From NCBI RefSeq assembly GCF_030684315.1, contig NC_081387.1, positions 28,019,771 through 28,083,770 on the forward strand: 64,000 nt of DNA. The letters are read 5' to 3'. Positions within the stretch are counted from its first letter, which is position 1. Every line of letters starts with the position of its first letter. The position numbers and the translations under genes are program-made. Of this stretch, positions 6,261 through 64,000 are shown piece after piece. The stretch is from Stegostoma tigrinum (lineage: Eukaryota). Under the pieces are notes generated by a model. The model was not told the DNA's origin, ran no database searches, and was given only the letters and a program-made list of their open reading frames with translations.

Positions 6261-6735
6261 ATGATCAATTTTAATCAAAGATTCCCTCGGGAATGTAGCC
6301 AGGAAACAGTCTCCTCAAGGCTTGGGGATGCTCTTTGGTCTGTACGTGGTCATCTTGGATCCTTGTTGGGAAGGGAAATGGTAGATGTTGTCAGATGGCT
6401 CCCTGAGCCGACTGCCATTGTCGTTTGGCAGAATGCCTCATCGCCAGAGCAGGCGCCGAGCTTGATGAGAAGGGAATCGCAGCATTGCACACTGCAGCTG
6501 TATCCAAAACCTGCACAGCTATGCCCTCAGGGTAGGGAGGTTTTACACTCAAGCTCAGGGTAGGTTCGATAAAGATGCAGTGAGGAAAGTCTTACTCTGT
6601 GGCACACACATTGGAGACTGAGTGAAGCTCCTTGGTCTGTATGTGTTTGACCTGTAATGCCTTGTCTGTACAGGCGAGTTACGATAGCTGATTAATACTC
6701 TTCCTTCTTGTTCCCTCCCCGTCCTGTCCCTGCAG

Positions 6736-7615
6736 TTTGTTGAGTTCTGTGGGACTTTAACGGAAGAGAACCCGGAAGTGATCCACTTCCTGCAGAGGAA
6801 GTACAGCAAGGCCTTCCCGGAATATTTGGCCTCCACGGAGTTCCGCAATGTGCTGGGCCGTTGCCTCACCCGGGTCCAGGGCAAGAAAAGCAAAGTGTTT
6901 GTTTACATCAACGAGCTCTGCACAGCCTTGAAAGCTAACTCTCAGAAAACCAAACTAGCCTTGGCCAGCAGGGAGAATTCCAAGAAGGCAGCTGGACCAG
7001 GCACTCCATCCGTTCAGGATGGCAAAGAGCTGGGCGCGTGCCTGACTCAGGCTGATGGCCAGTCGGCAGATACAGCCTCCCCATCGGTGTCTCAGTCTGA
7101 CCCTGACAAGAAGAAACGGATGGGCAGTGGATCCCGTCGCCAGATCCGCTATTTGGAGAACCTCCTGAAGGTCTACGCTGACGAGATCAAGCGGCTCCAG
7201 GAAAAGGAGCTGGACCTGAACGAACTGGAGGACCAGGACTCCTCCTACATCCAGGAGCACCGGCTGAAGAAGAAGATGGTGAAGATCTTCGAGAAGCTAT
7301 GCGAGCTGAAGAACTGCTCGAGCCTGACGGGCCGCGTCATCGAGCAGCGCATTGCCTTCACTGGCACCCGGTACCCCGAGATCAACCGCAAGATCGAGAG
7401 GTTCATCAATAAGGAGGATCACTTCCCCGATTACCAGGACATCCGCAACATCATTCAGAAAGTCAGTGTCAAGCACTCGCTGGGACTGAGGCAGAGGCAG
7501 ATCCAGAGCATGGCGCAGGACGTGTTCCGAGAGGTTGGTAACCGCCTGCAGGAGCGGCGGCACCTTGATTTGGTGTACAACTTCGGAAGCCACCTCACGG
7601 ACGATTATAAGCCAG
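6736..7615 (+). CDS. DAXX: DAXX coding exon 2 (helical bundle and histone H3.3/H4-binding domain)
   Basis: Acceptor ccctgcag|TTT. Translation FVEFCGTLTEENPEVIHFL...GSRRQIRYLENLL...GRVIEQRIAFTGTRYPEINR...LQERRHLDLVYNFGSHLTDDYKP is a clear DAXX signature. Donor G|gtgggt, phase 1. Confidence 0.96.
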
Positions 7616-9076
7616 GTGGGTGTGTAAGGGTGGGATGGGGCGGTTGGAGGGGAGCTCATCCTGCAGTATTTGGGATATGTCCCACCAGTTACCCCCAAGT
7701 CTGTTTATCCCACTCTGGGTGGGGAGGGGGTTTGCTCAGTGCCAAGTGAAGTAACAGCTGCTGTCTGCTCTGAGCCACTCCATCCTGACCTCAGTCCCGG
7801 CACCGGAGCGTGGTCGCCCGTGAGGGGAGCAGGAATGATGCTGCAGAGTCCTGGGAGTTCCGAAGAGGAGCCCTGTTGGACTTCTCTCTCCTGGTGCTGC
7901 CGGAACTGCTGGGTTTCTGTGCCTGGGACATAGCGCAGTGCGATTATAACATTTCCCTTTGGGAGGTGGCACAAGGCAAGGAGCGTTTCTCAACTCCTGT
8001 GAAAAGGAACAGAAATGGGCAGATCATCTCCTCCAGCTTCCTCTGTCACTGTAAGATTTTGGCTGATCTGATTGTGGTATTAACTCCACCTTCGTGCCTG
8101 TCTCCCTCGCCCCTCCACTCCATTATTCATTAAAATCCTGTACGTATTGTCTAGGAGTGGGAGTCAGCCTTCAAAGCCGCTCCACTGTTGAATAAAATCA
8201 TGCCGTACCTAAATTTTAACCTTCCCCACTTGATATTCTTGTCCACCCTGATAACCTACCATCCCTTTGCTTGGCAAGAATATATCTACATAAAACAAGG
8301 AATAGGAACAGGCCCTTCAGCCCACTAAGCATGCACTGACACATTTTGCCCTTCCATATTAAACCTGTCATCACTTACAGGATCGGTATATACCTCTGTT
8401 CCCTTCCTATTCGTGTATTCATCTGGGTGCTTGAATGCTTCTGTTGTGTTCAGTTATTCAACCTTCTAAAAAGAAATAAATTCCCCTTGTGTCTGACTTA
8501 AATGAGAGACCCCTTGTATTTAAACAATGACCTCATTCTCGCTATCCACCCCCGCCCCGTATCGGCTGTGTCAAGGCCCTGAGGCGTCTTTTACACTGGT
8601 TAGCAAGCGGGCTCTCGTATATTTGCCATGTTACCATCAATTAGTGCTCTCGTCTCATAGTATGAATTGTTGCTCTTCGTATTGCTGATTACTGTGCATT
8701 GCCTGACTCGTATGAGACTGAAAGCTTTGACAAAATATCTTTTCCTTGCCATACGTCTTGGCATTCGCCCTGTCGAGTTCCCTGTTGGAATGATTCACTG
8801 GAACAAGCTCTTACTCCTTGTTACTTTTAGGTCCATCCTGCTCAACCCTTCCTTTTGTAATGAGGCTGCTTTGTTCCAGAAGTGAGCTGGCTTCCTTTCG
8901 ACTAAGCTTGTTTCCGTTACGTGTTAGCACTGGAAGTGGGTTGGAGGCTCCCCTGAGCGCTGTGTTGTGAATTGGGTGAAGATGACCTGTTTGCGTGGTG
9001 ACCCTGAAAAGAGACTGTTGGTGTAACTTGGCCTGCTGCCCTGCGCCACAGTATAACGTACATTTCTGTTTCCCAG

Positions 9077-9475
9077 GGAAGGACCCAGCCATGGCAGACG
9101 CGGCCTTGGAGAAGAGGCTGCGGTCAAACCGGACCGTTGCTCTTGGCCGCCTCGATGAGGTGGTGAGGAAATATGCTGAGATCCAGGACATCAGCGAAAT
9201 AGAGGAGGAGGAGAAGAGGAAGAAGAAAAGACTTCTGCAGTCGGCAGTCACCTCCACCTCCGAAACAAACACAGATGAAATCAAGGAGGGGCAGGAGAAA
9301 GCTCAAAATGTGAGTGAGACTAAAGGGGAAGAACCAGAGGAAGATGGTCGTGGCTCCGCTGACGAGGAAGAAGAGGAGGAGGATGAGGATGAGGACCTAT
9401 CGTCAGATCCTGATATTGAGGAGGAGCTGTCAAAGATTGAGGAGGTTGTGGCAGCTGAGGATGGACCACAAGATG
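9077..9475 (+). CDS. DAXX: DAXX coding exon 3 (end of histone-binding domain, acidic region)
   Basis: Acceptor ttcccag|GG. KDPAMADAALEKRLRSNRTVALGRLDEVVRKYAEIQD then an E/D-rich tract. Donor G|gtattg, phase 1. Confidence 0.9.
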
Positions 9476-9961
9476 GTATTGGTATTCTGATACGTAATGC
9501 TTTAGATGTGCCTTGTGCCTTGCCCATTCCAAACCCGGAACTAGAGGACACCCTTTGTCCCCTGCAGCCTGTCCCACCCCCACCATTCAAACCAAGTGAG
9601 CACCTGCCTTGGGTATGTTTAGTGATCCAACCTACATGGCACACTGTGGGAGAGAATTCCTCTGAATTGACCACTTTAGTTCCCAGAAATCCTTCCCCCT
9701 TTCCATCTTAAATGGGAAGCCTTTTAATTTTAAGCTCTGCCCCACATATTCCCAAGCACAGGGAAGCATCCCTTCGGCATTCATCCTGTTAGGATCTTCA
9801 ATCAAACTTCATTCCTCTAGAGCAAAATTCCCAGGAATTTAACCTGCTCAATCTGTTCCCTAACAGAATGCTTTACCCAGGTGTTAGCAAAATTAACCTT
9901 CCCATCCCTTCTTCACAAGGAGACTAGAAATATTGACAGTCTTGCACCTGTGTGTGGGGGG

Positions 9962-9963
<2 letters not shown>

Positions 9964-9991
<28 letters not shown>
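9964..9991. repeat. (GT)n microsatellite
   Basis: Uninterrupted GT run. Confidence 0.95.
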
Positions 9992-9992
<1 letters not shown>

Positions 9993-10955
9993 GCGGAAAA
10001 GAGGGGGAAGTGATTGATGGAGCAGCTGAAGTTGGTTGGGCAGGCAGTGCCCGAGTTACAAACGGGTTCTGCTCTCGAGTCCGCTCACAAGTAGATTTGT
10101 TTGCAAGTCCGAGCGTAATTCAGGACTGCGGAGAGCAGCCGCTCGTAAGTACCGAAACCGCTCATAGGTCGGGTCTTTAAATTTTAAAACTGGACGTCTG
10201 TATATCGGGGGTGCCCTGTTGACATGTCCTGAAATTGGGATGACTGGCATCCGACAACTCCAGCCCTTTTGCAATGTGCCGGGTGTGAATCCTGTCAGTG
10301 CAGAGTTTTCTCCCTGATTCCCGTTGACTCCAGTCCTGCTGGAGCTCCTTGATACTACTCTGCCAAGCACAGCTTTAGTGTCGAGAGCAGGCCCCCACCC
10401 ACCCTGCTTCCCTCCCCTTTGTGCTGTTTCTGTAATGACCATTCTTGACGAGCCAATAGGTTTGATATTTGGGGGTGGGGGGGAAGAACCTATGTGCGGG
10501 GAGGTAGTTGGAAAAGGAACTGCAGGGCCCCAGCTGTTTCCCACTTGCTTGTGACTGAGAGGTTTGACTCAGCCAGTATCCCAGGGAAACATGCCTGAAG
10601 TATACAAGAGACATCTGACTCTCTGCCTCACACGCTGTTCCCTACCTCATTGCTCCTGCCAATATACTCCTTTGGTGAGGGAACTCCCTGATTGTGAGGC
10701 AGCCTCAGTGTCATAAAGAGCAAGCAATTTCCTCTTTTTGAACTGAAGGTTTTGCTGACGTTTAATGCACATTTTATGCTGAACTTTTAAGGGCTAAATA
10801 TTTCAGCAAATGGCGCGCGCGCACACACACCCCCTCCCCAGAGTATGGGATATAATTGCTCAGGCTTCCTATTGGCCTGCTGCAGGTTTCTCTGCAGTTT
10901 AAATCAGTTGAGTGTCTTTCCCTTAGAGTAACTACACTGTCCGATTGTGTTTCAG

Positions 10956-11871
10956 ATGAGAAAGCAGAAGGCAGCGATGCCGAGGAGGAGGAAGACGATC
11001 AGGGCTCTGCCGAGTCAGCCCAGTCTTCGGAGGAAGAGGACAGCGAGGAGGACGCAGAGTCTGCTGAAGGCTCCCACGTGGAAGGAGGAGTGGGACTAGA
11101 GGCCGAGGCTAGCTCCAAGAGCGAGCTTAGCCCCGCCAGCCGGATGGACAAGTCCGAGAGTGGGAGCACCACGCCAGAGGTGGTGGGTGGCGATGTTGAT
11201 GGTGTCCCTGTGTGCCCCATGGAGGATGGAGTGGGCTCGAGTGTCGAGGGGAGTGCTGCTGTTCCTGTTCCTGCTCCCACTATGTGGGATGTGATCAGTG
11301 AGGAAGGGGTGGGCACCAGCAGCGAGAACGGGACTGCCCCTGCTGCAGACGAAGGGTTGACGTGTGCTGTTGCTGAGAAGGGGAACCAGCCCGACACAGG
11401 AGAAGGCCCCACCTGCCTGGCCGAGGAAGGCCTGGGGAGTGCAGAGGCCAGTCCCCTTCCTGCTGATCAGGAGGTGGCAGAACCTGACTTTGGGGGCCAA
11501 GCCCAACAGCAGGCCAAGAGGAAGCACGCAGACTCCAGTGGACAGAAACTGGGGCTGCCCCTTGTCGGACTGAGCCCCAGAACTGTCCCCGTGGTGGTTG
11601 AGGGAACAATAACAAACGATGTGTCAGTATGTGACGAGGGCAGTGCAGAAGCTTCCCCGTGCTCTGAGCCAAAGCCTTCGATACTGGAGGTTGAGAAGAG
11701 TCTGGACGGGAGGACCCCCGTCACATCAGGGAGAATGGATGTTCTGGAAACTGATGGCTTTGGCCCAGACCTCTATTTAACTGCATTAAACGGACAGAAG
11801 CAAAATTCAGTCGATCTGGACACGTCCCCGGTCGCAAAGAGAATTAAGCGAGCCCCAGACTTGGAAACAAA
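10956..11871 (+). CDS. DAXX: DAXX coding exon 4 (large acidic, Ser/Pro-rich disordered region with NLS-like KRK and KRIKR)
   Basis: Acceptor gtttcag|AT (phase 1), open for 916 nt, donor AA|gtaagt (phase 2). Phases match both neighbouring exons. Confidence 0.83.
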
Positions 11872-12329
11872 GTAAGTAGAAAGATGTTGAATTCCTTTTG
11901 GATAAGCACTTTCTGTTCCAACTCTACACCCCCACCCTTCCCCTCCCTCCCCAGTCATATTGGGAAGAAATTGCCACTGGGAAAGTAGATTCCTACCGTT
12001 GCTGTTTTCAGGTGGGCCTTCTCACTGATCAAGGCAGTTTGACAGGCCTGCTCCAGGCTGAGGAAGCACTGTCCCTGGTTATACTGACCTCCCAGCCAGC
12101 AAACCCGCTCTGTTCCTTCTGTGGCAATGGGCTACTGATGCCTGTGGGAACTGGCCAGCCACAGACTAGAACAGCTGGAGCTTCCCCACCCCCCTCGCAC
12201 TCATCATTTACACGGGTCACTCCCACGTGTTAGAGATGTCTGTTGATGAAAGGCATTGAAAGGAGTGCCTGGGGGGAATGAGAAAGACAGGCTGGTTGTT
12301 TTTGGCCGTAGACAAGTGGGGTGGGGTGG

Positions 12330-26544: not shown

Positions 26545-27790
26545 GTGTGAAGCTGGATGAATACCGCAGTCCAAGCAGCATCAGAGGAGCAGGAAAGCTT
26601 GACGTTTTGGGTCAGGACCCTTCATCAGAAATGGGGGAGGGGAAGGGGATTCTGAAATAGGGAGATGAGGGAGGTGGATAGAGGATGGATAAAGAGGAAC
26701 CAGACAGTTCAAGGAGGTGGTGTTAGAGCCAGTGAAGGTGAATGTAGGCGGAGAGTTGGGGGTGGATAGGTCAGTCCGGGGGGGTGGGTGGGGTGTGCGG
26801 GTTGAGGTTAGTAGGTGGGGGGTGGGGGTGGGGCTTGAGGTGGGAGGAATGGATAGGGAGGCAGGAACTAGCTGGCCTGGTTTTGGCATGTAGTTGGGGG
26901 AGGGGAGATTTGAAGCTTGTGAAGTCCACATTGATACCATGGGGCTGCAGACTTTCCAAGTGGAATATGAGATGCTGTTCCTGCAACCTTCGGGTGGCAT
27001 CATTGTGGCACTGCAGGAGGCCCAGGATGGACGTGTCATCCGAGGAGTTGGAGGTGGGGAATTGAAATGGTTCGCGACTGGGAGGTGCAGTTGTTTATTG
27101 CAAACAGAGCAGAGGTGTTCTGCAAAGTGGTCCCCCAAGCCTCCGCTTGGTTTCCCCAATGTGGAGGAGGCCACAACAGGAACAGTGGATGCAGTATACC
27201 ACATTGACAGATGTGCAGGTGAACATCTGTCTGATGTGAAAAGTCTTCTCAGGGTCTGGGATGGGGGTGAGGGGGGAGGTATAGGGGCAGGTGTAGCACT
27301 TCATGCTGTTGCAGGGATGGTGGGGCTGCGGTGTGGAGTGAACATGGGAGTCACAGAGAGAGTGGTCCCTCTGGAAAGCACATAAGGGTGGGAGGGAAAA
27401 ATGTCTGGTGGTGGGGTCGGTTTGCAGATGGCGGAAATGTCGGAGGATGATGTGTTGGATTTGGAGGTTGGTGGGGTGGTATGTGAGGACTAGGGGGATT
27501 CTGTTTTGGCTATTGTGTATAGGGGCTGTGAGGGATGAGTTGCGGGAAATGCGGGAGACACCGTCGAGGGCATTTTTGATCACTGTGGAAGGGATGTTGC
27601 GGTTTTTGAGAAAAGAGGACAGCCGGGATGTTCGGGAGTGGAATGCCTCATCTCGGGAGCAGATGTGGCGGAGGTGAAGGAATTTGGAATAGGGGCTGGC
27701 ATTTTTACAGGAAGGTGGGTGAGAGGAGGAATATTACAGGTAGTTATGGGAGTTTGTAGGTTTTAAATGGATATCGGTTTACAGGAAGTT
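26545..27790 (-). mobile_element. Degenerate Penelope-like element (GIY-YIG region and 3' terminal repeat)
   Basis: Frameshifted copy of the 27995-29310 element (RIPLVLTYHPTNL, FTCTSVNVVYCIHCSCCGLLHIGETKRRLG), in inverted orientation. Confidence 0.88.
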
Positions 27791-27994
27791 GGGCAGTTCC
27801 TACTATCTCAGTTTGAATATGTTTGGTTGAAGAATTAGAGCGGAATTAAGGATTCTGGTTTTCATTCCTGAGGCGAATGGTTTCGGAACCACTTGAAAGG
27901 ACAGTGGATGCAGCAAATTCTTGTCGCAGTTGGAAACATTTATAGCTGAAGGGATAACTCCTCCATATTGAGTGTTCCCTGAAAATCTCTCCAC

Positions 27995-29310
27995 GACTCC
28001 CACAGCTACCTAGAATACACCTCCTCCCACCCACCCTCCTGCAAAAACTCCATCCCCTATTCCCAATTCCTCCGCCTCCGCCGCATCTGCTCCCACGATA
28101 AGACATTCCACTCCCGCACGTCCCAGATGTCCAAGTTCTTTAAGGACCGCAACTTCACCCCCACGGTGATTGAGAACGCCCTTGACCGTGTCTCCCGCAT
28201 TTCCCGCGACACATCCCTCACACCCCGCCCCCGCCACAACCGCCCCAAGAGGATCCCCCTCGTTCTCACACACCACCCTACCAACCTCCGGATACAACGC
28301 ATTATCCTCCGACACTTCCGCCATTTACAATCCGACCCCACCACCCAAGACATTTTTCCATCCCCACCCCTGTCTGCTTTCCGGAGAGACCACTCTCTCC
28401 GTGACTCCCTTGTTCGCTCCACACTGCCCTCCAACCCCACCACACCCGGCACCTTCCCCTGCAACCGCAGGAAATGCTACACTTGTCCCCACACCTCCTC
28501 CCTCACCCCCATCCCAGGCCCCAAGATGACATTCCACATTAAGCAGAGGTTCACCTGCACATCTGCCAATGTGGTATACTGCATCCACTGTACCCGGTGC
28601 GGCTTTCTCTACATTGGGGAAACCAAGCGGAGGCTTGGGGACCGCTTTGCAGAACACCTCCGCTCAGTTCGCAACAAACAACTGCACCTCCCAGTCGCAA
28701 ACCATTTCCACTCCCCCTCCCATTCTCTTGATGACATGTCCATCATGGGCCTCCTGCACTGCCACAATGATGCCACCCGAAGGTTGCAGGAACAGCAACT
28801 CATATTCCGCCTGGGAACCCTGCAGCCTAATGGTATCAATGTGGACTTCACCAGCTTCAAAATCTCCCCTTCCCCCACTGCATCCCTAAACCAGCCCAGT
28901 TCATCCCCTCCCCCCACTGCACCACACAACCAGCCCAGCTCTTCCCCCCCACCCACTGCATCCCAAAACCAGTCCAACCTGTCTCTGCCTCCCTAACCGG
29001 TTCTTCCTCTCACCCATCCCTTCCTCCCACCCCCAGCCGCACCCCCAGCTACCTACTAACCTCATCCCACCTCCTTGACCTGTCCGTCTTCCCTGGACTG
29101 ACCTATCCCCTCCCTACCTCCCCACCTACACCCTCTCCACCTATCTTCTTTGCTCTCCATCTTCGGTCCGCCTCCCCCTCTCTCCCTATTTATTCCAGTT
29201 CCCTCCCCCCATCCCCCTCTCTGATGAAAGGTCTAGGCCCGAAACGTCAGCTTTTGTGCTCCTGAGATGCTGCTTGGCCTGCTGTGTTCATCCAGCCTCA
29301 CATTTTATTA
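27995..29310 (+). mobile_element. Young 5'-truncated Penelope-like retroelement: RT thumb, CCHH linker and GIY-YIG endonuclease (ORF open to 28996), plus 3' terminal repeat
   Basis: HSYLEYTSSHP...IPYSQFLRLRRICS, PCNRRKCYTC and FTCTSANVVYCIHCTRCGFLYIGETKRRLGDRFAEH...LGTLQPNGIN with no stops. Hammerhead-like core at ~29221. Confidence 0.93.
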
Positions 29311-32789: not shown

Positions 32790-32864
32790 TCAGGTCTCTG
32801 ACGGTCCAGCAACTTCTTTCTCATGATCCGTTTCACTCTCTTCATCCTCGTCCTGGTAGCTTCT
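32790..32864 (-). CDS. Ig-5TM gene: terminal coding exon (acidic cytoplasmic tail)
   Basis: Acceptor tcttcccccaacacag|AGA, phase 0. Encodes RSYQDEDEESETDHEKEVAGPSET*. Minus-strand AATAAA at 32131-32136. Confidence 0.6.
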   Translation of the reverse strand, partial: RSYQDEDEESETDHEKEVAGPSET

Positions 32865-37893: not shown

Positions 37894-37925
37894 CTGACTT
37901 TCTTTTATCAATTCGGTAAACTTTT
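37894..37925 (-). CDS. Ig-5TM gene: 32-nt cytoplasmic exon
   Basis: Strong acceptor ttgtttttctctttgtag|AA and donor CAG|gtaatt. Encodes (K)KFTELIKESQ, phase 1 to 0, bridging the TM5 exon and the terminal exon. Confidence 0.65.
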
Positions 37926-40530: not shown

Positions 40531-42486
40531 AACAAAACGAGCTTTGTTCTGTCAGACCAAATTATTGTAAACATTTCTGAGGAAGGGTACCGGACCCGTA
40601 ACGTTAACTCTGATTTTTTTCCTCCACAGATGCTGCCAGACCTGCTGAGCTTTTCCAGCAGCTTCTGCTTTTGTTCCTGATTTACAGCATCCACAGTTCT
40701 TTCAGTTTTTGTACTGTAAACAATTGTTCAGTTTAAATGAATGGGATTTCTGATTTGGAACGTGTAAATTGAAAAAAAAACAGCCTTGATTCAAGCCAAG
40801 AATTAAACATTTTCTTTTAAGTAGGGTGCATGAAAGTCACTGCTGATGTTTTTCCAAGGATTTCTGCTGAAAACATTGCTCTTTGGGAACAAGCTTTCAG
40901 GAGAAATGGCTAATATTGTAAATATTCGCTCAAAAAGCTGAACACTTATTTAAGGAAGCTGCGAATCCTTCACACCGTTGGAAAGTATGACAATCCACAG
41001 ATGTAACCTTTGGAAGACAATTGTCAACAGCACAACAACTGTGATTAAAAACTACAGTAATAATTTGCATTGGTATAGAACTTTTAACATGATTCCATTT
41101 AACAATGCACTTCACAGTCACATTATGAATTAAAATCAGACACAGCCACACATAAGGTGATGTTAGTCTCAAAGAAGGAGACGTTGAGTCACACAAGTTT
41201 AAGAGAATTCCAGAGATTAGTACCTAGTTACCCAAACGCATGGTCAATAATTTCAGGCACGGCCAGGCCTTCAGAATTAGATGAGCATAGATATCTTGGA
41301 CAGTCATGGAGCTGAAGGAGATTATAGAGAGCAGACTATACAAACAATTTGAAAGGATGAGAATTTTCCATTTAAGGTATTGCTTGACACAGAGCCAACA
41401 GGTCAGCAGGCAGAGGAGCAGTGCTTAACAGAATTTTGTTCAAATAAGAACAAGGACAAACGAGTTTAAATCATCTCAAGTTTACAGAGATTAGAGTGTG
41501 AGAGGCCAGGCAAGAATGCACTGGAATAGTATATCTGGATGTAACAAAGGGATGGTGGAGGGGTTTAGAAACAGATGTTAAGGGGGATGTTAGGGTTAGA
41601 GGTAGAAATTGAGAGTCCTAGACATGGCATGGGTAGGTGAATCAATAGGTCATCCTGTGGTCAGGTATAACATCAAAATTGTAAAACCAGATTCATAACC
41701 TATTTTTGTTCATGTTGAACTTTTGATCAGCCAGGGATAAAGATTCATAAATCTTTGCCTTCTTGGAGGCTTAATTACTGATGTACCACCTCCCTGGAGA
41801 GACATGGAGAACTTACTACAAAATAGTAGCAAAACATGGTTAATCATTTCGCAATTAAGTCTGAGGATTGTTTGAAGAAAATATCATGGGTCACATTAAT
41901 GTACTATTAAGAGTTCAAAAAGAAATTGGCTGGGCACTTGAAGAAAATAAACTTTCAGGGACAGAACAGGGAATGAGGCTGTTTGGGCTGATCTTTGGGG
42001 AGTCAGAATGGATTCGTTGGGCTGACGGGCCTGTCTCTGTGCCACATAGCTCAGAGTTTTAGAGCTTACATTTCGCATACTTGACATTGACTTTACAGCA
42101 TCTCTAGATTAGCTTTCTTTTCTACATGCCCTGAAAATGGTTGCAAACTACTTGCTGTGCATCTCTTGTACAACATTGCCATCAGGCAGTATCATTTCAG
42201 ATCTTTCCAAACAGCAATGTTACAGTGGAAAACGAGAGACAATTTACTCAAACTTCACATCAAACTACATCAACACAGGAAATATTTCAACCCAATTCAA
42301 AACTAATTGGTATGAACAAATAAAACATTCTAAATTGTCCCAGGTGTAAAACAAGTCTGGAATATAACACTTAGTACATTCTGACAAAGCTTTCAACAAT
42401 TCCAATACATATGAAAATGCAACTGAGTAATGAATGTAAGTCAAAGCTTCATGAAAAATGTAATTTTATTAAACAATGTGTGGTTA

Positions 42487-43811
42487 CTATTTATATTTTC
42501 TACCTTTCCACTTTTTCTTTCGTAAACTTCTTCTTGTGGGCACCGATAGTTCTTTAGTTATTGCATTGTTTTTGGCAGAGGAAGTATGGGTTGGTCTACT
42601 TGAAACACATTTGGTAAACCCAATTTCAATAGAAGCTACACCCTCATTAGTTTCTGAGTTCACCTCTTGTTCTCTTAAGTCACCTGATGTTTCAAAGGTT
42701 TCGGTCCTGCTGAACTGTGCAGAGCTTTGATTGTCTACGACTTCAGTGAGGAGGCTGACTACAGAGTCAGCTTCCTCACTGATCTGAGCTAAACCCTCTA
42801 ACACTGTCGTGTGTACTTTCTGAATGCTTGAATCTCCTTGGGTTAGGCCACTGTGAACAGTATGCCTTATATCCGACAAGCCTCTGCAAAGAACATCCTG
42901 AATGTTGCCTAATCCTGTCCTTACAGCTGTTAGATGCTCAGCTATGCCACTCTGTAAGACACTCTGCAATCCTGTAAACCCTGTATGAATTTTGGATTCC
43001 AGGTCTACGATGCCTGACTGCATACTTGTGTGTACATTATGTAAATCAGTATGGAAGGAGGCCTGCATGTCTGCCATGGCAGACTGTATGTCATTAAACA
43101 GGCCTCCAACACACAGATTTTCCAGCTGCTGTACCCTGGAGAATTCATCATGGAACATCAGGGCCAGAAGATCCTGCTGTGATGCTGTGTTTACACCACA
43201 TACTGGTACACGCCAACGTCCTTGTGGCCTTCCAGAAGTTCCAGCGAATGCTTCATCCTCCTGCTGTGCTACAACTACTGGTGTGGAGTTGGACGGTTGT
43301 GCCAGTTCATCGTGTGTGATTATCACAGGATAAGGCCCTGCAGAATACCCGGAGATGATGGGTGCTGTGGCAGTTGGTGTAACAGCCACAGTCAAAGTAT
43401 TGGTGGGTCTGGTGGTGGCAAGGGTAGTAGGTGTGATTCTGGTAGGAGTGTGGATGACAGCAGTGGTAACGTTAGTGTCAGCACATGTGCTCTTGGGAAT
43501 GTTGGAGGTGATGCTGGATGCAGGGGTAGAAGATGTGATTTTGATGGGAATAGTATCTGTGCTGGGTGTGACATGGATACAGTTGGGTAGACTGGTGACA
43601 GCAGAGGAATCGATAATATTAGTGAACATGGCATTGGTGACAAAGCTGGAACTTATGGACCATGTGGATACTGTGGTGATGGAAGTAGATACAGCATCAC
43701 TGGCAGCAGTGATTGGCATGACAACACCAGTCGTGGAGGCAGGAGTGATGGTAGCAGCAATCTCTGTTTGTTGTCTTGCAGGCTTCTGTTCTGCCAGAGG
43801 ATCTGGCTTTT
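42487..43811 (-). CDS. Large terminal exon (440 aa plus stop): Thr/Pro-rich region, 11-mer amphipathic repeats, basic C-terminus; candidate alternative last exon of the Ig-5TM gene
   Basis: 1.3 kb stop-free frame in AT-rich surroundings. Acceptor tttaaatctatatacag|AA, phase 1. AATAAA at 42465-42470 on the minus strand just past the stop. Confidence 0.7.
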
Positions 43812-44059
43812 CTGTATATAGATTTAAAAAATCTTTATGTACTGAGATAACCATTGTTCAAGCATAATAAGTAAATAATTATTTATAATTACTTTATGAA
43901 GGTATGACAGAGTAGTTCATGTCTGACTGGGTTATGGGTGTAAATGGGAAATTATATTTCAAAACACAAACAGGTCAGCCGCGATATTATTGATTGGTGC
44001 AGCAGGGTCTATTAGTTTGCTTCAACTTCTATTTCACACATTCACAAGTTCTCAAATCA

Positions 44060-47382: not shown

Positions 47383-47430
47383 GGACAAAGTCAGAAGTCA
47401 CATGACACCATGTGACTTCTGACTTTGTCC
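47383..47430. repeat. Perfect 22-bp inverted repeat with 4-nt loop
   Basis: GGACAAAGTCAGAAGTCACATG-acac-CATGTGACTTCTGACTTTGTCC. Confidence 0.95.
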
Positions 47431-48465: not shown

Positions 48466-48558
48466 TGTAGCTGAAGACAAGCAGACATAACACAAACGGT
48501 GAAGCAACAGCACCAAATAACTTGTGTATCAAGGGCCATTCAGAAGCACATCCTTCCT
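48466..48558 (-). CDS. Ig-5TM gene: exon for Cys-containing loop and TM5
   Basis: tttttattgtgtttag|AG...A|gtaagt, 93 nt, phase 1-1. Encodes EEGCASEWPLIHKLFGAVASPFVLCLLVFSY. Confidence 0.8.
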
Positions 48559-50640: not shown

Positions 50641-50724
50641 CACTGTACTCATACTTCTTCATAATCAAAATTATGGTTGTGATGATTGTTATATGCACAA
50701 ACATAGCGACTAGAATAGGTAACC
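50641..50724 (-). CDS. Ig-5TM gene: TM4 exon
   Basis: ttcttgtgtttggcag|GG...G|gtgagc, 84 nt, phase 1-1. Encodes WLPILVAMFVHITIITTIILIMKKYEYS. Confidence 0.8.
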
Positions 50725-56943: not shown

Positions 56944-57060
56944 AGGTATTTGACCAAACCCGTTTACATGGACCTATTCTTCTGCCAATATACATTATCA
57001 TTGGTGTTAACATGAAGACAAGTGAAACTGTTAGAAGACCCACTGATTCGACTGACCAAC
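56944..57060 (-). CDS. Ig-5TM gene: TM3 exon and basic cytoplasmic loop
   Basis: acttcttttcag|GT...T|gtaagt, 117 nt, phase 1-1. Encodes GWSVESVGLLTVSLVFMLTPMIMYIGRRIGPCKRVWSNT. Confidence 0.82.
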
Positions 57061-58671: not shown

Positions 58672-58773
58672 CATCAATAAAGATCCACAAAGTGGTTGCG
58701 GCTACAAGCAATATCAGTGATGACATCAAGCAGAGCAGACAGAGGGCAATCAGGAATTTCTGTGTTTTCTGAT
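58672..58773 (-). CDS. Ig-5TM gene: TM2 exon
   Basis: ttctctttactttag|AT...G|gtaaat, 102 nt, phase 1-1. Encodes DQKTQKFLIALCLLCLMSSLILLVAATTLWIFID. Confidence 0.85.
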
Positions 58774-59937: not shown

Positions 59938-60045
59938 CTCTGTTTCGAAATATAGTTGACAGCATGAAGGCACTAACTGATGTCAGCATGCACCCAAGAC
60001 CTGCGATAGCTGTTGTTATTATCCTATATTCATATGGAAGGATAC
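59938..60045 (-). CDS. Ig-5TM gene: TM1 exon
   Basis: tttttcaactgctttag|GT...G|gtatta, 108 nt, phase 1-1. Encodes GILPYEYRIITTAIAGLGCMLTSVSAFMLSTIFRNR. Confidence 0.8.
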
Positions 60046-63832: not shown

Positions 63833-64000
63833 CATCAATAATTAATTCATACTCTGCTTGCTGTAATTTGCCATTATGTTCTGTAATGCAGATATAAAGT
63901 CCACAGTCCTCGAACACAGCATCAGGAATATATAGAGTGGTATTGTCTTTGGACAGTCTATAAATAGTCACAGCACTGACATTGCCTTTCATCCATTCAT
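63833..64000 (-). CDS. Ig-5TM gene: membrane-proximal Ig domain exon (C2/I-set, CEACAM/CD2-like), truncated by the window end
   Basis: EWMKGNVSAVTIYRLSKDNTTLYIPDAVFEDCGLYICITEHNGKLQQAEYELIID has the Ig C-strand Trp, LSxDNxTLxI and DxGxYxC. Donor G|gtgagt, phase 1. Confidence 0.88.

Follow-up and report, generated by a model that had tools for sequence, protein, structure and literature searches.

A receptor gene adjoining DAXX

The analysed window is a stretch of 64,000 nucleotides from Stegostoma tigrinum. Its minus strand carries a gene for an immunoglobulin (Ig) domain and five transmembrane (TM) segments, which adjoins DAXX and whose signal-peptide and Ig exons lie at or beyond the right window edge. 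This host gene is probably an MHC-linked, CD47-like Ig and five-transmembrane receptor gene without a name. The exons of its short form, taken from the exon map unless another basis is given, are the following:

L004 3001-2926 (-), outside the window: signal-peptide exon
63833..64000 (-): 3' part of the Ig-domain exon (Pfam Ig_3/I-set on orthologues)
59938..60045 (-): TM1 exon, 108 nt, phase 1-1
58672..58773 (-): TM2 exon, 102 nt
56944..57060 (-): TM3 exon, 117 nt
50641..50724 (-): TM4 exon, 84 nt
48466..48558 (-): second outer loop and TM5 exon, 93 nt, phase-1 donor
37894..37925 (-): 32-nt short-tail exon (exon map; ray short tails align with it)
32790..32864 (-): last exon, coding part, completing the short acidic tail (70% to the end of P0010)

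The complete Ig exon measures 261 nt and begins outside the window, at L004 863-603. The second outer loop contains an invariant Cys in GCA, and the 32-nt and last exons together encode an in-frame acidic tail of 35 residues. A signal peptide followed by five TM peaks is seen by hydropathy in all five orthologues tested, and the AlphaFold model of the short form P0014 shows TM helices at a mean pLDDT of 62.6.

DAXX exons occupy 6688-11875 of the window on the plus strand and mark the extended MHC class II region; the first of them matches Pfam Daxx and its histone-binding domain, while the later acidic exons are placed by position. The white shark orthologue, LOC121291358, likewise neighbours daxx, near TAPBP, VPS52, KIFC1 and WDR46, and its annotation cell is empty in the accessible part of the PMC10751288 supplement. 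Neither DAXX nor CD47 had a match in the main text of that paper. Among the papers listed by literature searches, no title or abstract opening points to the host gene, which supplements other than that of PMC10751288 might name.

Several models from different species (P0001, P0006, P0010, P0011 and P0019) skip the Ig exon whole and join the signal exon to TM1; going by these gene models, such skipping would yield an Ig-less five-TM isoform. Upstream of the signal exon, L004 3000-3600 is GC-rich and CpG-island-like, which suggests a broadly active promoter.

A long exon between TM5 and the short tail

The initial annotation had placed a 441-codon exon between the TM5 exon and the 32-nt tail exon. 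An open, phase-1 exon is indeed present there, with the following features on the minus strand:

42487..43811 (-): long alternative exon, 1325 nt to the stop, 441-residue tail (frame and gene models)
43240..43752 (-): Thr/Ser/Pro-rich spacer, exon residues 20-190, of variable length across species (composition)
42715..43134 (-): 11-residue-repeat helix region, exon residues 226-365 (periodicity)
42490..42549 (-): polybasic C-terminal 20 residues, 10 K+R (composition)
42498..42504 (-): candidate internal phase-1 splice donor, exon end at 42504 (in frame; model P0010)
42465..42470 (-): candidate AATAAA poly(A) signal (motif)

From stop to stop the frame runs over 456 codons (42487..43857, minus strand), and 440 open codons would arise by chance at the local base composition with P about 1.5e-10. 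The acceptor AG just before 43811 is in phase 1 and fits the donor of the TM5 exon, so that the join reads VFSY-KKPD in frame, as annotated, with 441 residues after VFSY and the C-terminus RRSLRKKKWKGRKYK directly before the stop. This acceptor is the weakest of the eight compared, at 52% pyrimidine vs 67-76%. The AATAAA noted after the stop begins 17 nt beyond the stop codon, at 42470; with 15 such hexamers on the minus strand of 32901-63800, the chance that one falls within 30 nt is about 0.014. At the other splice signal, the in-frame donor after 42504 could extend the long exon into the short-tail exons. Joining the exons by coordinates gives three open isoforms, of 315 aa (35-residue tail), 721 aa (441-residue tail) and 751 aa (internal donor).

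Whale shark is the closest named relative over the long exon, at 92%. Residues 226-365 form its most conserved part: identity over the helix region ranges overall from 64 to 95% (133/140, 123/140, 121/140, 121/140, 112/140 and, in Narcine, 89/136), and that over the Thr-rich spacer from 28/74 to 147/160, with length changes between species. Purifying selection on the helical part was also detected, with a pN/pS of 0.21 (7 synonymous and 5 nonsynonymous changes; binomial p=0.009); the estimate uses 12 of the 14 differences from a single contig of a related organism (X1, depth 2.9), gap-free over 42839-43220. The X1 contig, which we guess to be RNA, also covers intron stretches, and no informative exon joint was found in it. 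Taken on its own, the existence and conservation of the long exon is a conclusion that we hold with high confidence.

Architecture of the long tail

The layout proposed initially, a Thr/Pro/Ser-rich stretch followed by a helical repeat region and a basic end, was borne out. Ser, Thr and Pro make up 44% of exon residues 20-190. The region that follows has the 11-residue hydrophobic periodicity and a/d/e/h core of a hendecad repeat: of the 11 repeats, 11 have a hydrophobic residue at a, 8 at e and 9 at h, and 7 have Gly at d. Its hydrophobic period of 3.65 was reached by none of 300 shuffles, and power at 11/3 is about fifteen times that at 7/2. AlphaFold draws a single helix of about 130 residues (residues 33-165, mean pLDDT 84.6). 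The basic end, once described as NLS-like, is conserved in sharks as a basic end, while its identity as an NLS is unsupported. At the DNA level, an 18-nt inverted repeat (94%, 4-nt loop) lies within the sequence coding for the helix region, at window positions 42743-42782.

Structure searches with the lone helix gave no Foldseek match at E<=0.001, and in the ESM Atlas all leads for the helix scored under 0.9 and the TM part had no match. A profile search of 1.84 billion proteins returned 7 matches at E<=1e-30, all within the three helix groups described below. Of the best 150 matches 32 were scanned, and the distant ones among them are tape-measure, CCDC90-like, paralemmin and similar repeats. 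These 11-residue-repeat proteins, namely the CCDC90-like family (PF07798), phage tape measures and paralemmin-domain proteins, resemble the long-tail helix in a shared periodicity and fill the profile hits from E 1.7e-22 down; scores fall from 142 bits for the last clear homologue to 96, and profile comparison with the best distant match aligned only 10 columns. This likeness is probably convergent. CCDC90-like proteins are trimeric coiled coils.

Related helix exons at two further loci

Three reciprocal genome searches led to the same three loci and no others, which we take as lower bounds: the long exon itself, one copy on C36 and one on C15. All three are open frames behind phase-1 acceptor candidates, and exact look-ups of the two paralogous open reading frames (ORFs) found no match. 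The two further genes are laid out as follows:

L012 4885-324; L003 2184-1411 (C36) (-): TNFR-superfamily gene, three cysteine-rich exons, then a paralogous helix exon
L023 3279-3857, L022 5132-5365, L010 9482-9560, L002 1451-2355, L027 3902-4015 (C15) (+): TRIM gene (RING, two B-boxes, coiled coil), with acidic exons and a paralogous helix exon downstream

The C36 copy (L003) begins about 1.2 kb after the last of the three TNFR-like cysteine-rich exons, and a crude motif and exon scan of about 50 kb downstream revealed no convincing TM exon. A database protein, P0036, contains TNFR cysteine-rich domains and the same helix, joined as in C36, and is 55% identical to L003; it has no hydrophobic or TM segment, Pfam found no death domain in it, and no signal peptide was identified. 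The C36 gene may possibly encode a soluble decoy receptor. Osteoprotegerin and DcR3 are soluble TNF-receptor decoys, which the C36 paralogue and P0036 resemble in combining TNFR cysteine-rich repeats with a C-terminal extension and no TM segment, and from which they differ in that the extension is an 11-mer helix. A multimerising part would fit P0036, because TNF ligands are trimeric. A short alternative end, DPGVLIAPSMK before a stop, may exist at about L003 746-713 on C36.

A RING/B-box exon precedes the C15 copy (L002) by about 48 kb, and a pair of similar acidic exons flanks the copy; upstream of this copy are candidate coiled-coil and 23-nt exons typical of TRIM genes. A crude scan of 80 kb (C15:48963001-49043000) found no PRY/SPRY exon. 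Two relatives of this copy, P0034 and P0035, have their first residue within the helix exon and continue into the downstream acidic exons; since they do so without TRIM parts, the TRIM link of the C15 copy is unproven. In a tree of 12 helices, the C36 pair and the C15 trio sit on long, fully supported branches apart from the seven rows of the window type, Narcine included, which suggests duplication before the shark-ray split.

These data also bear on a suggestion made at the outset, that the exon is the captured end of a PIF/Harbinger Myb/SANT ORF or belongs to a nested gene separate from the receptor mRNA. Large single exons with low-complexity and helical parts do resemble such ORFs, the presence of one module at three unrelated loci points to some mobility in the past, and the models P0002 and P0008, of which P0008 sits on a 2,374-base contig, treat the long exon as an ORF of its own. 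Against this, the genome holds only three copies, all intact, so that a high-copy transposon ORF is not indicated, and in DNA runs X2 and X5 a single contig spans the whole long exon without the pile-up seen at nearby repeats. Genome searches, which score best candidates only, gave 7 PF13837 and 14 PF13873 matches, none of them on C44, C15 or C36. The long exon itself has no Myb/SANT match, and no Myb family is among those listed for the 32 profile hits scanned. The upstream Myb exon reported missing stayed missing: the 25 flanking minus-strand ORFs scanned, of 72 listed, match neither Myb nor transposase. No inverted repeats tightly bound the exon among the 25 longest of 58 pairs, although old captures lose such features. 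With no Myb/SANT match near any copy among the candidates and ORFs scanned, and a low copy number, an origin from PIF/Harbinger gains no support, and we regard the captured or nested ORF as highly unlikely.

Gene models and isoforms

Evidence on splicing comes from public gene models, not reads; a look-up of RNA runs that contain the long exon listed none. Models of Rhincodon, Chiloscyllium plagiosum, C. punctatum, Mustelus, Scyliorhinus torazame, Pristiophorus and Narcine all join TM5 to the long exon at the same point; this set of seven species comprises the first search (6 proteins among 637 candidates) and their cluster members. No fused form of 771-2200 aa was present among 982 candidates. 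The electric ray Narcine has two long models (X1 and X2) and a short one (X3). In five other batoids (Amblyraja, Leucoraja, Hemitrygon, Hypanus and Mobula) all models measure at most 320 aa; the sequences inspected terminate in the acidic tail, and none of the models retrieved has the long one. The Carcharodon model ends after TM3. As no short-tail-only form occurs among the shark models retrieved, and the five batoids lack the long tail in theirs, the case for two isoforms within one species rests on Narcine and on the intact Stegostoma exons. The 314-aa short form P0014 is encoded on a 1,425-base contig, which would imply a spliced transcript; no comparable short-contig record was found for the long form.

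The same models could mean that in sharks the long exon effectively serves as last exon constitutively, or that it is an internal cassette used via the 42504 donor, with regulated switching of minor importance. The exon is used in all six shark species whose models pass TM5. Furthermore, P0010 leaves the long exon at the internal donor and goes on with the short-tail exons, a path that is in frame here and gives a tail of 471 residues, and P0034 and P0035 at the C15 locus also run on into acidic exons. Yet both forms are present in Narcine, the window keeps intact short-tail exons that can be aligned with the short tails of rays, and P0010 is a doubtful model because it includes an apparent retroelement stretch. 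We consider such constitutive or cassette use quite improbable. The giant alternative C-terminus after TM5 that the initial annotation put forward is supported by the models of seven species, by both Narcine isoforms and by purifying selection, and on the gene models alternative use of the last exon is likely.

Topology of the long tail

The long tail is probably cytosolic, since five TM segments come after an outer Ig domain and the counts of N-glycan sequons agree: the Ig domain has 2-4 against 0.6-1.4 expected, an excess, and the tail 0-5 against 1.4-4.3 expected, no excess. The tail could instead be extracellular or luminal, a mucin stalk and coiled coil, if TM5 failed to span the membrane or if splicing took place after TM4 or the Ig exon. 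Thr-rich stretches such as the spacer are more typical of extracellular mucins, and with every exon phase equal to 1, joins after TM4 or the Ig exon would stay in frame. In some orthologues the TM5 peak ranks lowest or nearly so (1.65-2.43), and the TNFR paralogue probably puts its helix outside the cell. But basic residues follow TM1, TM3 and TM5, the acidic short tail shares the junction, and every retrieved model joins after TM5. The mucin form envisaged earlier, in which TM4 or the Ig exon would be the splice partner, is thus used by none of them, and an outer location of the tail seems very unlikely.

A possible mechanism

Our main reading, to which we give a probability of roughly 0.58, is that an alternative last exon swaps the 35-residue acidic tail for a 441-residue cytosolic tail whose 11-residue-repeat coiled coil bundles receptors. 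The weak acceptor at 43811 would be used and the RNA cut past AATAAA, in which case the downstream tail exons would be dropped. The Thr/Ser/Pro spacer may serve as a flexible tether, and the pattern of the repeats suggests that the long-tail helix self-associates as a coiled coil. This helix, about 130 residues long, would assemble into a parallel homo-oligomer and thereby cluster receptors or provide a scaffold for partners, and the basic end may be a sorting signal or a binding site for lipids of the inner leaflet.

With the same exon and splicing, the helix might be a lipid-binding amphipathic 11/3 helix, apolipoprotein- or perilipin-like, that anchors the receptor on lipid droplets or on curved membranes without self-association. 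A hydrophobic period of 3.65 and an 11-residue amphipathic helix fit lipid binding too, the C36 copy has Gly/Thr-rich repeats, and Pfam Apolipoprotein gives sub-threshold matches to the long exon (E 0.0027) and to P0036 (E 3.5e-05). Every one of these scores is, however, far under the 90-bit cut-off; the helix is net acidic, with 15 D+E vs 5 K+R, and the interfacial lysines typical of such helices are missing. Lipid binding in place of self-association is in our judgement unlikely.

The helix exon may be a portable module of phase 1 whose duplication predates the split of sharks and rays. We tentatively propose an undescribed elasmobranch plug-in oligomerisation exon, shuffled into three unrelated genes of immune type: a second, MHC-linked lineage of CD47-like five-TM receptors, a TRIM ligase and a TNF receptor, which it would make a multimeric soluble decoy, with the choice of splicing or poly(A) site switching between plain and clustered forms; this wider idea is doubtful. 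The same helix exon at a TNFR gene and near a TRIM gene would be a compact case of exon shuffling, with a shared module on unrelated proteins.

Comparison with CD47

Human CD47 (PDB 7MYZ), the poxvirus CD47-like proteins and the shark gene are alike in having one Ig domain, five TM helices and alternative C-terminal tails. In the accessible parts of PMC8410850 and PMC10902115, CD47 is described as having alternatively spliced C-terminal tails; the former calls it the only five-TM receptor of the immune system and stresses its Ig-to-loop disulfide, and the latter lists tails of 4-43 residues produced via exon skipping. In the shark gene, the N-terminal single Ig domain and five TM helices of the CD47 family are found by hydropathy, AlphaFold helices and exon map. 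As in CD47, there is a second-outer-loop Cys and a spare Cys in the Ig domain; both the loop Cys and this third Ig Cys are conserved in 5/5 orthologues, the Ig position differing from that of the CD47 C15-C245 disulfide.

Foldseek with the P0014 model found 7myz_C in the PDB at E 4e-3 (267 columns, 13% identity), the only full-length row among the matches listed. Against viral structures, poxvirus CD47-like proteins rank first and second, goatpox CD47 with E 7.7e-6 over 302 columns, and the next at 3.2e-4. The superposition on CD47 is poor (rmsd above 19, TM-score under 0.3), with a query model of low confidence. VIA-align placed CD47 outside its top 50 and returned generic helical bundles and Ig domains instead, and a PDB sequence search gave Ig-domain matches, with CD47 absent among the matches listed (22 in one run, the best 60 of 165 in another). 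The CD47 TM-domain profile, PF04549, had no match at E<=1 in six of six orthologue proteins; a genome search with it found none either, the control being equally silent.

There are clear differences. The CD47 Ig domain is V-type, whereas that of the shark is short and I-set/C2-like, with Pfam Ig_3 and I-set as best matches and V-set at E>=0.038. The SWF linker motif given in the accessible text of PMC8410850 is missing, and all covering rows have DGILPYEY or similar as linker. Unlike CD47, the shark gene has an MHC location beside DAXX, and its tail has 441 residues vs the 4-43 in the list of PMC10902115 as far as accessible. The accessible part of PMC13262535 contains nothing on shark CD47. 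The shark gene is probably a distant relative of CD47, not a shown member of the family.

What we describe is a probable CD47-like receptor whose unusually large tail, likely to be switchable, is supplied by a small and apparently undescribed exon family. The signalling role of the short CD47 tails is unclear, and a tail ten times any listed for CD47 may serve as a natural experiment on the function of such tails. A relative linked to the MHC in the oldest jawed vertebrates also bears on the origin of CD47.

Two further observations concern repeats in the window. Positions 26581-29265 hold two opposed repeat copies with a GIY-YIG-like YIGETKRRL motif, presumably Penelope-type retroelement ends, with similar copies in L008, L012 and L013. 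A perfect 22-nt inverted repeat with a 4-nt loop lies at 47383-47430, in the intron upstream of the long exon.
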